In this document: positions 33,001-36,000 of the stretch, piece by piece
Numbering within the stretch: the stretch's first letter is position 1
How the letters are laid out: each line of letters starts with the position of its first letter
NCBI RefSeq assembly: GCF_003991155.1
Contig: NZ_CP031293.1
DNA: 64,000 bases
Origin: Escherichia coli
Lineage (GTDB): Bacteria > Pseudomonadota > Gammaproteobacteria > Enterobacterales > Enterobacteriaceae
Strand: one strand, 5' to 3'
Position numbers: made by a program

Positions 33001-36000
33001 AGCTGTTCGACTGGCTCATTGAGGAGTGCCGCGGAGAATGCCCGCCCCGTGTCAGGAAAAATTATATTCTCCAGTGTGGCCCGGGCCGGTTCAGAAACAG
33101 GAAAAAACTGAACGCATTGCTGAACATTCTTGAATCTCAGTTCAGGCTTTCTGTCGTGCCGGAAGGAAAAACCATGTATGTTCTGCTTCCCCAGATAGCC
33201 AGTTTAAAGTTGTCTGATGTCTCTGGTATTTTTACCTCGGGTTATCACTACAATAAGCTGAGAGCGAAGTAACCGGTGAGCAGTTTTTCTCCATTATGCT
33301 TCAGACTTAGATGATTGATTATTATTGGGATTTCATCACCGATATTCAGATGTATGAATATCGGTGATGAACTAAAGCTCAGGAGCTGCGTGGTGGTGAT
33401 GAATCAACAGGCATATAACTGATACCCGCCGGTCAGAAGTTCCAGCCTGCGACTTTCCTGTCTGCGTGCCCGCAGTCCGGCGTTCAGGTGCAGCGTGTGA
33501 CAGAACGCACGGAGAGCGAAACGGCAGGCAGACAGGCCGTTCAGTCAGCCCTGGCACCCTGCCCGGATACCAGCTTCCCTGAAACAACTGGCATCAGGTG
33601 CGCTTATCGTCAACCGTTGTGCGGTATGCCAGGAGCACGTACTGATCCATCAGATCCGTCAGTGCTGCGCTCTGCTTCTGACGGTTGATGATCCATTCCT
33701 CCAGCTCTTTTTCTGATTTCCGTTTCAGATTCTCCGTCCAGTCGTCAAGGCAGTTTCCGGTCATTAAATCAAGCCAGCAAAGCCAGACCAGTTTGAGGCG
33801 CAACTCCGTGCCACCAAACTGACGGAAGAGGCTGATCAGTTTATTTGCCAGCGAACGCTGCCTCAGACGTTCACATTCAGACAGGAGAATGCCTTCCAGC
33901 ATCGGATGATGAACCAGCAGATGTTCACTGGTGCATAAATTCACTATCAGATCATCATCCAGGGGCGGCGTGGTCCGTTTGTCCGGACCATAAATCAGCC
34001 GGTGCAGACTCTGGGGTACGATGGCAATCTCCGGTTTTTCACCATTGAATGACACCCACCCGGGCGTCAGATTATGGAAGTAGTAGATATTCGGATGACA
34101 CACGCCCCAGGATACGGCGTGCCGGGTGAAGCCGGTCAGCCATTTCTGGTAGCTTTCGTGGAGCAGCTCGTAACGGGTCTGATACTGTGGTTTCATTTTC
34201 ATATTCCTCACGGGGGATAACAGGCAGCAGAACGCCGCCGGCAGGCCGGAGACTGCGTCTGCTGCAGATGAACGGTTAAGAATTACGGACGGGACTGTGC
34301 AATACGCGCCTGCAGCCAGGCTTCCACTTCGCTTTTCAGCCATCGGGAGCTGCGGCCCATTTTGATGGGCGCAGGAAAGTCACCATCCTTGATGAGTTTG
34401 TAAAACCACTTATCGGTCAGGCCGGTCAGTTGAGTGATAAATGCCATGTCGACCATCTGGTCACCCATCAGTGAAACTGGGGTGATCATGAGAATGTTCC
34501 TCCGGATGTTGTTAAACCAGCCGGTGTGGTCATGAAAACAACGCACCACCTTCACCGGCATAACAACCGGGGAGAAACGTAAAAAATAATCGGGAATGTG
34601 ACCGCCAGGAGATAAACGGGGAGGTTACGGTGGCTGAGCCGTACCGGTATGCCGGGTGGTTGTTACGAAACGATGCTTCCGCACGCGCGCGCGATAAAGA
34701 AGGGATGATTTTCGTGAGGAAGAGGGGAAAACTGGCGTTCTGATAATTGCAGAGTTATTTACGGGGCGGTTACGATGGGGCAGACCGTGTCCGGTGGGCA
34801 GGCGACAGGTATCACCGATGGGATAAGACTGTCTGATTGGTATTATAAATATATAAGAGAGAGCAAACACATGAGATCAAATACATGAGTTCATATATGT
34901 GAAATAAACACGGTGAGTGTGATCAGTGGGCATGATGAGAACGCAGTAGCAACAGACTGCGCTATCCCTGATAGCTGGCGTATAACCTGCGTATATAAAA
35001 CGTACCAGCAACGCACGTGAACAGAGTGCATTAAGCATCCGTCGTTGACACCGACCTGGTGAGTGACAGTCTGAGAGACCGGTTAAGTGGTGGTACGGGA
35101 GTAATGAGTTTGGGGAGGGTACCAGAATGTCAGTCTGGTACGGTATGCTGACAGTATCACGTTAATTGCAGCATAAAGTGATGAGAGGCTAATGGAAGTT
35201 AAAACCAGAGCAGTTCCGTCGTTGTTCATCCCGGGAGACACTGGAAAAAGTGATTTCCCACACGCGTTATAAGCTTACTCCAGCGGAGATGGAAGCCTTC
35301 AACTCTGCGGTCGATCACCGACTGGCAGAACTGACAATGAACAAGCTTTACGATCGTGTTCCCGCTTCAGTCTGGAAATATGTCATCTGAGCGTTCGGTA
35401 ATCACAACTGCATCGCGCCAGGTGTTATCCGCTTTGTGATTCTTATTGGCTCTTCTCAGGTTATTAAAAGCTGAATATGTTCCTGTTGTCGGGAACCAGG
35501 ATAATACCGGGAACGTTAAGCGGTATAGCGACAACAAAGAATTCGAAATCAAAAGGGAATGGTGTACGGAGGTGTAGGCGGTAATGGGCCGATTTTCGGG
35601 CATTACCGACCTCTGCTGAGGTTTTCTCGTATTTATCGGGGAGCTGGTGCGTTACTGTCACTGTCTGGCACAGCAAACGCAGAGGTGGCGGGGCGCTCTG
35701 CTCCGCTGACTCCGGCTAATCTCTCCCCTTTTACCTACTGCAACAGTACAAATACACTGACGCCTGAAACGACAGCCAGAATCAGCACAGGCAGTAACGT
35801 CAGTAGACAAAGCAGACGATCGGTATTTCGGTAATAATCGAAGGGATCTGCTGACACGTAGCCCGGGCAACATTCCGTATTATGAGGGATGGCGTTATCA
35901 CAATCCCTGCACACCGTTTTGCGTATCACCATCACGTCCTCCTCACAATCTTATCCGTAACCGGCTTTTTGCATTAAAAAAACAACGCTGAAAATTCAGC

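Follow-up and report, generated by a model that had tools for sequence, protein, structure and literature searches.

The small ORF and its product

The window, as the whole 64,000-nt stretch of the Escherichia coli contig NZ_CP031293.1 is called here, carries on its minus strand a short open reading frame (ORF) at positions 35735-35932, between alpA and a gene of the inovirus Gp2 family. The ORF is a member of a family of protein-coding genes in which the N-terminal part of 39 residues is under purifying selection, and the gene is already annotated by NCBI but uncharacterised. An earlier note on this DNA had described a frame at these coordinates with GAGGAGG 5 nt before the ATG, CxxC and CC pairs in the product and one C-terminal hydrophobic helix, and each of these features was found. 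The unit is made up of the following parts.

35735..35932, minus strand: reading frame of the small protein, opened by the ATG at 35932 and closed by the TAG ending at 35735, 65 codons plus TAG
35938..35944, minus strand: Shine-Dalgarno sequence GAGGAGG, 5 nt before the ATG, spacer ACGTG
35867..35911, minus strand: codons 8-22, with the putative first zinc knuckle C8-x2-C11, the conserved H17-N-T and the C21-C22 pair; constrained part of the predicted cytoplasmic head
35837..35866, minus strand: codons 23-32, position of the putative second zinc knuckle and linker; hypervariable in the clade of the window and a local divergence peak
35816..35836, minus strand: codons 33-39, juxtamembrane motif YYRNTDR, near-invariant (ratio of nonsynonymous to synonymous rates, dN/dS or omega, ~0.07), with basic residues N-terminal to the helix
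35738..35815, minus strand: codons 40-65, predicted C-terminal transmembrane tail anchor LLCLLTLLPVLILAVVSGVSVFVLLQ, from hydropathy and the AlphaFold2 helix

The encoded protein, MVIRKTVCRDCDNAIPHNTECCPGYVSADPFDYYRNTDRLLCLLTLLPVLILAVVSGVSVFVLLQ, has four cysteines near its N-terminus, C8 and C11 (CRDC) and C21 and C22 (CC), and a fifth, C42, inside the helix. Kyte-Doolittle means over 19 residues are 2.4-2.8 (up to 2.82) across residues 40-64, after which one residue, Q65, follows. AlphaFold2 gave residues 30-64 of the window allele as a helix, with a predicted local distance difference test score (pLDDT) of 87-89. Strain RM10466 is identical to the window over the ORF, and its product there is NCBI protein WP_000236763.1. 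An in-frame GTG is found at 35935, one codon 5' of the ATG.

The pattern GAGGAGG-N5-ATG has one match in the window where 0.15 is expected, and at least one match was present in 15 of 100 shuffled sequences, so that the Shine-Dalgarno sequence alone is only mildly unusual. Either GAGGAGG or GAGGGAG is, however, kept in all the lineages examined, and it is because of conservation, rather than from the window alone, that the small ORF is taken to be more than chance.

Evidence for coding

Copies of the locus were gathered by means of an invariant non-coding 23-mer starting 56 nt upstream of the start codon, an anchor that avoids a bias towards intact ORFs, and 115 usable metagenome copies were obtained. 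A frame of 64-66 codons is kept in about 93 of them (~80%), and about 22 are frameshifted, truncated or deleted. Within codons 2-39, variable sites at the first, second and third codon positions number 14, 14 and 26, respectively, and dN/dS pooled over pairs is 0.19 in the annotated frame versus 0.35-2.8 in the five other frames. On a minimum spanning tree, where each change is taken once, the same codons underwent 45 synonymous and 48 nonsynonymous changes, which corresponds to an omega of 0.29 and a synonymous excess with P=1e-8; pairs of deep lineages gave dN/dS values of 0.10-0.24. Conservation, which the earlier note had named as the check on its proposal, thus speaks for the gene: frame, start and Shine-Dalgarno sequence are kept across diverged island lineages, and codon-level selection was detected.

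In about one third of the copies (~35/98 full-length copies, L012-L131; L003 4169-4177) the ATG is replaced by ATC. In these copies the next codon is GTG, preceded at five bases by GAGGGAG, and NCBI still calls ATC as the start. It is likely that the start of the ATC alleles has been shifted by one codon and not lost.

Folding of 391 nt around the ORF gave an ordinary structure (z=-0.97), with 16 of 100 shuffled sequences folding as well, and no compensatory or covarying pairs were present in ten lineages. The Rfam search returned no family at E<=1, save a chance riboswitch match outside the ORF. With no relevant Rfam match and an ordinary fold, a non-coding RNA or riboswitch was rejected, as was a long hairpin formed by the helix-coding part with the 3' flank, which appeared in a single fold and showed no compensatory pairs in the ten lineages.

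Distribution and annotation

A segment of 501 bases around the ORF matched 3317 of 5426 complete E. coli genomes at 6038 places, nearly all of them on the chromosome; the median per genome is 2 places and the maximum 6. At least 1000 contigs carry the exact protein of the window. Inspection of eight E. coli records showed an NCBI-annotated hypothetical protein of 65-66 aa at the corresponding position, and in a ninth, from strain E2865, the copy is marked as frameshifted. In the annotated neighbourhoods an 'inovirus Gp2 family protein' is encoded opposite the small ORF, and two 'zinc ribbon' proteins come after it.

The protein search returned 39 relatives, of which those with a named source are all from E. 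coli and the remainder come from metagenome assemblies; they are named 'hypothetical protein' or occasionally 'zinc-ribbon domain-containing protein' in their sources, and a Pfam domain was assigned in 0/39. When 1.84 billion representative proteins were searched with a profile, 43 matched, nearly all of them being this E. coli gene in variant or frameshifted form. The K-12 islands CP4-57 and CP4-6, which hold yfjJ and yagK, contain neither the ORF nor its intergenic region, and tblastn against a phage collection of 50,697 records found no match to the small protein. As judged from these collections, the family appears to be confined to E. coli, carried by genomic islands of the CP4-57/CP4-44 type.

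Scanning one genome per species produced a sole match, in an E. coli-like contaminant contig of a Paenibacillus assembly. This copy, in the 683-bp contig NZ_WACP01000054.1 of Paenibacillus tengchongensis (0.59x coverage), is probably due to contamination or misassignment, and the same probably applies to the E. coli-type locus in NZ_CP079635.1, a 1.04-Mb record labelled 'Klebsiella pneumoniae plasmid' with five entries in the PLSDB gene table. Deep conservation outside E. coli was considered and rejected, the two best distant look-alikes occupying unrelated contexts. One look-alike, P0074 (78 residues; CVDCGN...STDPFG...KDRL plus helix, E=6e-4), is located at L134 6001-6237 on a contig resembling a conjugative plasmid, with NikA-like, DotM_C, exclusion protein and PLD nuclease genes, and it overlaps a gene call on the opposite strand.

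The head resembles a zinc ribbon

The family consensus is MVIRKKKC-RD-C-GNAITHNTV-CC-PY-C-GSVDPFGYYRNTDR, followed by the helix. It contains a Cys4 zinc-ribbon pattern, CxxC-x9-(C)CPxCG, with an extra invariant cysteine and His17, and then YYRNTDR. When 14 members were compared with Pfam, Zn_ribbon_3 was matched at 9.4e-4 by one, the others gave 3e-3 to 0.1, and none reached the gathering level; weak UPF0547 and DZR matches (3e-3 to 2e-2) also occurred among the members. The small protein had no match in NCBIfam, and no PHROGs or PADLOC family was matched at E<=0.01.

The best sequence matches in the PDB (E >= 0.03) are mostly zinc knuckles, such as that of reverse gyrase, KRCRDCGYQFTEDRESCPKCGS, at E=0.03. 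Among the Foldseek matches listed for the PDB, zinc ribbons and fingers prevail (L40e and RadD are examples), all at E >= 0.6, and the closest folds superpose with a root-mean-square deviation of 1.1-1.6 A over 24-26 residues. Neither the sequence matches nor the fold matches are significant. For the canonical allele AlphaFold2 proposed short strands at residues 5-7 and 14-16 (pLDDT 68-77) in addition to a confident helix. By its motif, then, the family may be placed with the Cys4 zinc ribbons on weak but consistent grounds, and the window allele appears to be a degenerate member.

Short zinc-ribbon domains such as Zn_ribbon_3 (PF13248), UPF0547 (PF10571) and DZR (PF12773) are often fused to a transmembrane helix, and the family shares this layout, K-x-C-x2-C-G-x9-C-C-P-x-C-G and then a single helix, as do the look-alikes P0069, P0072 and P0074. 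It differs from the three Pfam families in the extra invariant cysteine (CC) and His17, in its length of 65 residues with nothing past the helix, and in its restriction to E. coli islands.

Two clades of the family

Residues 5-7 divide the family into a 'KKK' clade, which keeps CCPYCG, and a 'KTV' clade, which includes the window. Over codons 23-32 the canonical CPYCGSVDPFG compares with CPGYVSADPFD in the window, where the fourth cysteine is lost (C25Y). Within the KTV clade the second knuckle has been rewritten repeatedly, and the forms CCPSC, CCPGC, CCPGF, CCPGY (window), CCPCY and CFPDC were seen.

The two clades differ in how selection is distributed along the head.

Codons 2-39: omega 0.15 in KKK (P=8e-8), 0.50 in KTV
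Codons 2-22: omega 0.18 in KKK, ~0.25 in KTV (P=0.02)
Codons 23-32: omega 0.11 in KKK, ~2 in KTV (15 nonsynonymous, 3 synonymous changes)
Codons 33-39 (YYRNTDR): omega 0.08 in KKK, no amino-acid change in KTV
Copies, intact/broken: 74-76 / 2-6 in KKK, 17 / 15 in KTV, the latter with at least 7 different lesions

Compared with its nearest lineage, the window has an omega of 0.70. Judged from its sequence, the window copy is intact but derived, on a branch that is apparently either decaying or diversifying. Since the putative fourth zinc ligand is lost and the subclade is relaxed or diversifying and often inactivated, the allele in the window may have a changed or waning function.

The tail is a predicted membrane anchor

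The C-terminal 25-27 residues are always strongly hydrophobic across the family, and AlphaFold2 modelled them as a helix with pLDDT 87-92 in the window and canonical alleles. Three tail cassettes were distinguished: A (LLCLLTLL..., window), B (IVTILLALIIVV...) and C (IFTALLALLVVV...). About half of the nonsynonymous sites differ among them (proportion of nonsynonymous differences, pN, 0.44-0.55), and B and C are separated by 15 nonsynonymous differences, yet neither contains a charged residue. The 19-residue Kyte-Doolittle mean is 2.75-3.05 in all 13 tail variants. One hydrophobic helix within the last ~30 residues and few residues beyond it, the hallmark of a tail anchor, were found in the window allele and in each of the 13 variants. 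The exchange of tails indicates that the cassettes have probably been swapped by recombination.

Near-identical heads joined to unrelated tails (pN 0.46) were observed in L005 1779-1979 and L009 2668-2868 compared with L011 2668-2865, for which the proportion of synonymous differences in the head (pS) is 0.08 and that of differences in the intergenic region 0.005. The breakpoint falls at codon 39/40, and the downstream DNA differs too.

A topology with the N-terminus inside is predicted because R35 and R39 precede the helix, no charge follows it, and zinc-binding cysteines need the reducing cytoplasm. Insertion is predicted to be post-translational because the chain of 65 residues ends before the helix leaves the ribosome tunnel. 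YohP, a small single-helix protein of E. coli, undergoes post-translational insertion that depends on the signal recognition particle (SRP) (PMC7549839), and its chain, like that of the small protein, is too short for the helix to be recognised during translation. The tail-anchored E. coli proteins ElaB, YqjD, Flk and DjlC, and YohP as well, resemble the small protein in having a single helix in the last 26 residues, 1-3 residues after it, and a predicted cytoplasmic head. The small protein has no sequence relation to any of these, and its head is a Cys-rich mini-domain instead of a domain of ribosome-binding, J or coiled-coil type.

Neighbourhood and island

The surroundings of the small ORF include the following features.

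36136..36705, plus strand: gene of the inovirus Gp2 / YagK-YfjJ family, divergent neighbour sharing an intergenic region of ~200 bp with the small ORF
~35208..35390, plus strand: 5'-truncated hha-like gene (EQFRRCSS...VWKYVI*), convergent with the small ORF; context only, outside the unit
35980..36018, minus strand: conserved T-run, 50-85 nt 5' of the start, with two weak hairpins resembling terminators; a possible leader, promoter element or terminator
36965-37366 and 37267-37788, plus strand: downstream Cys-rich pair, paralogous DUF7828 plus Zn_ribbon_11 proteins

Every annotated relative that was inspected has a gene of the Gp2 family beside the small ORF, and the divergent orientation of the two that had been noted before is correct. 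The DNA between alpA and the Gp2-like gene had also been considered otherwise free of ORFs, a description that fails for the interval between the small ORF and alpA, which holds the truncated hha-like gene. In related islands this gene is full length (70 residues), and it is absent from type-B islands.

Upstream of the small ORF an invariant T7-AATG block provided the anchor for the metagenome copies. The two hairpins at 35980-36018 overlap and are followed by the T7 run; the ATC lineage keeps the T-run but not the hairpins.

The surrounding genes comprise alpA, a YfjI-family gene, a YeeP-type GTPase, Ag43, DUF932, an antirestriction gene, YeeS/T and CbeA/CbtA, and the island is therefore of the CP4-57/CP4-44 type. 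Identity between the window and RM10466 is 98%, limited to the part between 29684 and 37327. Collinearity ends at ~37327, within the second zinc-ribbon gene; beyond this point the window has a DeoR-type regulator and ORFs resembling sugar-metabolism genes (38791-43165), and RM10466 has further YagK/YfjJ fragments.

The Cys-rich pair gave profile matches to DUF7828 (1e-30) and to Zn_ribbon_11 (3e-9 and 2e-18). A stop/start overlap of 4 nt is annotated for the pair in the identical region of RM10466, and faint hints of CoiA_N and DUF7830 were seen. The small protein had been thought possibly linked to this pair. What connects them is synteny only: the pair consists of DUF7828 plus Zn_ribbon_11, and neither PF11682 nor PF25165 was matched by the small protein or its relatives. 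Homology was likewise rejected, BLASTP similarity being limited to 7 residues (CCPYCGS/CCPRCGT) with one of the pair. The likeness lies in the abundance of cysteine, the common island module and a C-x2-C ... CCPxCG-like motif in one of the pair; on the other side, the pair belongs to another Pfam zinc-ribbon family, has no helix, and its similarity is insignificant beyond the 7 residues.

Mosaic evolution of the region

Synonymous divergence between clades reaches 0.45-0.63 in the head as against 0.15-0.22 in Gp2, about three times higher. In a sliding-window comparison, divergence peaked to a similar height at several places in the region, so this divergence reflects general mosaicism and is not specific to the gene; the head as a unique divergence hot spot was accordingly discarded. 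The whole block from Gp2 to the small ORF is mosaic (window 35400-37366 compared with L002, L003 and L011). L002, for instance, is 0-3% diverged from the window over the first zinc-ribbon gene and 20-30% over the 3' part of Gp2, and the spacer between Gp2 and the zinc-ribbon genes is polymorphic for insertions and deletions at about 36710-36860.

Discussion

The interpretation that we slightly favour is that the small protein is a membrane-tethered zinc-ribbon module for docking or regulation, serving the regulation/replication block of the island. Its first part, that this is a real tail-anchored small protein, is held with more confidence than the whole, and the role with much less. The chain of 65 residues would leave the ribosome before its sole hydrophobic segment is exposed, and post-translational insertion via SRP and YidC or SecYEG would yield a tail-anchored protein of the inner membrane with its N-terminus in the cytoplasm. 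There the zinc-ribbon head would dock a partner, either a protein or a nucleic acid, by binding or sequestering it. The island regulation/replication module (AlpA, YfjI, Gp2 and the DUF7828 pair), which always adjoins the gene, would be the most plausible source of this partner.

Several observations weigh against this interpretation. The partner and the docking role we infer purely from architecture and synteny. The window allele lacks the Cys4 two-knuckle pattern present in the family consensus and in the KKK clade (CCPYCG); its only Pfam match is UPF0547 at E=0.29, and its N-terminus was modelled with pLDDT 46-59. The mirror antisense frame also has a low omega (0.34), as is expected where third positions coincide, and no conserved long ORF is found in it. 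The small ORF is broken in 18/97 loci, compared with 17/97 for the Gp2 gene, which is three times longer; broken about as often, the small gene is dispensable. No sigma-70-like promoter passed a scan of the intergenic region (35200-36300, both strands); assignment by eye gave weak candidates only, and none is claimed. Last, a literature search found no paper on this ORF or its family.

Doubt about the window copy itself is of a different kind from doubt about the gene. The family gene may be real and the KTV allele of the window an intact-looking relic, without effective selection or function, an explanation that is unlikely though it deserves weight. It would account for the replacement of C25 by Tyr, for the omega of ~2 over codons 23-32 and of 0.50 over the KTV head, for the value of 0.70 between the window and its nearest lineage, and for the lesions, of at least 7 independent kinds, in 15/32 KTV copies versus 2-6 of ~80 in KKK; the adjacent hha-like gene is truncated in the window as well. 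Codons 2-22 of the KTV clade are nevertheless constrained (omega ~0.25, P=0.02) and YYRNTDR is invariant in it, and the window retains the Shine-Dalgarno sequence, the ATG and the hydrophobic tail in a protein found in exact form on at least 1000 contigs. Moreover, an omega above 1 in one segment can equally signal diversifying selection. The converse proposal, that there is no gene and that the ORF is incidental to a conserved regulatory or RNA element in the promoter region of Gp2, seems most improbable. The flanking non-coding DNA is at least as conserved as the ORF, no consensus promoter was found for it, and the family is limited to one species, all of which would suit such an element. 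It is opposed by the synonymous excess, specific to this frame and its mirror (P=1e-8), by the third-position periodicity of substitutions, by a frame that persists in lineages diverged locally by up to 30%, and by hydrophobicity preserved across unrelated tail cassettes; nor was any Rfam match or structure signal obtained.

Two further explanations accept the protein and assign it another role. The earlier note had suggested a small membrane toxin or regulator. The protein may be a regulator. A toxin, type I toxin-like or holin-like, would damage the inner membrane through its helix when expressed; this role appears very unlikely. Hok, Ldr, Ibs, TisB and ShoB are likewise small, very hydrophobic single-helix products encoded on mobile DNA in several copies per genome, and the strong Shine-Dalgarno sequence, the island location, the frequent inactivation and the ATC in a third of copies, which may lower expression, would be in keeping with toxicity. 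The scan of both strands of 35200-36300, however, left no promoter-like site for an antisense RNA, and Rfam, the RNA fold and the search for compensatory pairs were negative, as described above. No neighbouring antitoxin ORF was found. The type I toxins differ also in that no antisense RNA signal or structured leader was found here and no fold occluding the strong Shine-Dalgarno sequence was detected. The helix of the small protein lies at the extreme C-terminus, behind a conserved soluble head of 39 residues (omega 0.15-0.29), and type I toxins are not known to have a comparable domain; besides, 2-6 copies coexist per genome.

Single-helix proteins encoded by prophages are known as one class of exclusion factor, and a determinant of exclusion or defence, that is, a membrane-anchored specificity factor of the island directed against phage or competing elements and evolving in an arms race, would be consistent with the elevated synonymous divergence of the head relative to Gp2, the tail cassettes swapped at codon 39/40, the single hypervariable segment, and a mobile island that also holds the CbtA/CbeA toxin-antitoxin pair and an antirestriction gene. 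This role, too, is hardly probable: PADLOC, PHROGs and the phage collection gave no match, a location in the cytoplasm is predicted for the variable head, and divergence peaks of similar height elsewhere in the region make the mosaicism not gene-specific.

Beyond the docking module favoured here, a broader and quite speculative proposal, which we consider rather unlikely, can be put forward. The protein might be a recently born, E. coli-specific and membrane-anchored specificity factor of CP4-type islands, whose zinc-ribbon head and exchangeable tails would be diversifying because it gates island excision/replication or excludes competing elements or phages; the KTV clade, window included, would then be neofunctionalising rather than decaying.

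About 60% of complete E. coli genomes encode this protein, mostly in several copies, and it has been without a name, a family assignment or literature. It adds to the under-studied small membrane proteins a case in which a putative zinc-ribbon head of ~40 residues is carried on a predicted tail anchor, and its gene lies within the region controlling the widespread CP4-57/CP4-44-type islands, the regulation of which is poorly understood. The well-kept canonical clade and the decaying or diversifying clade provide a natural experiment on which residues matter. If the protein is merely a dispensable accessory, the result would be an ordinary one; its weight would rise if the protein controls island behaviour or exclusion.

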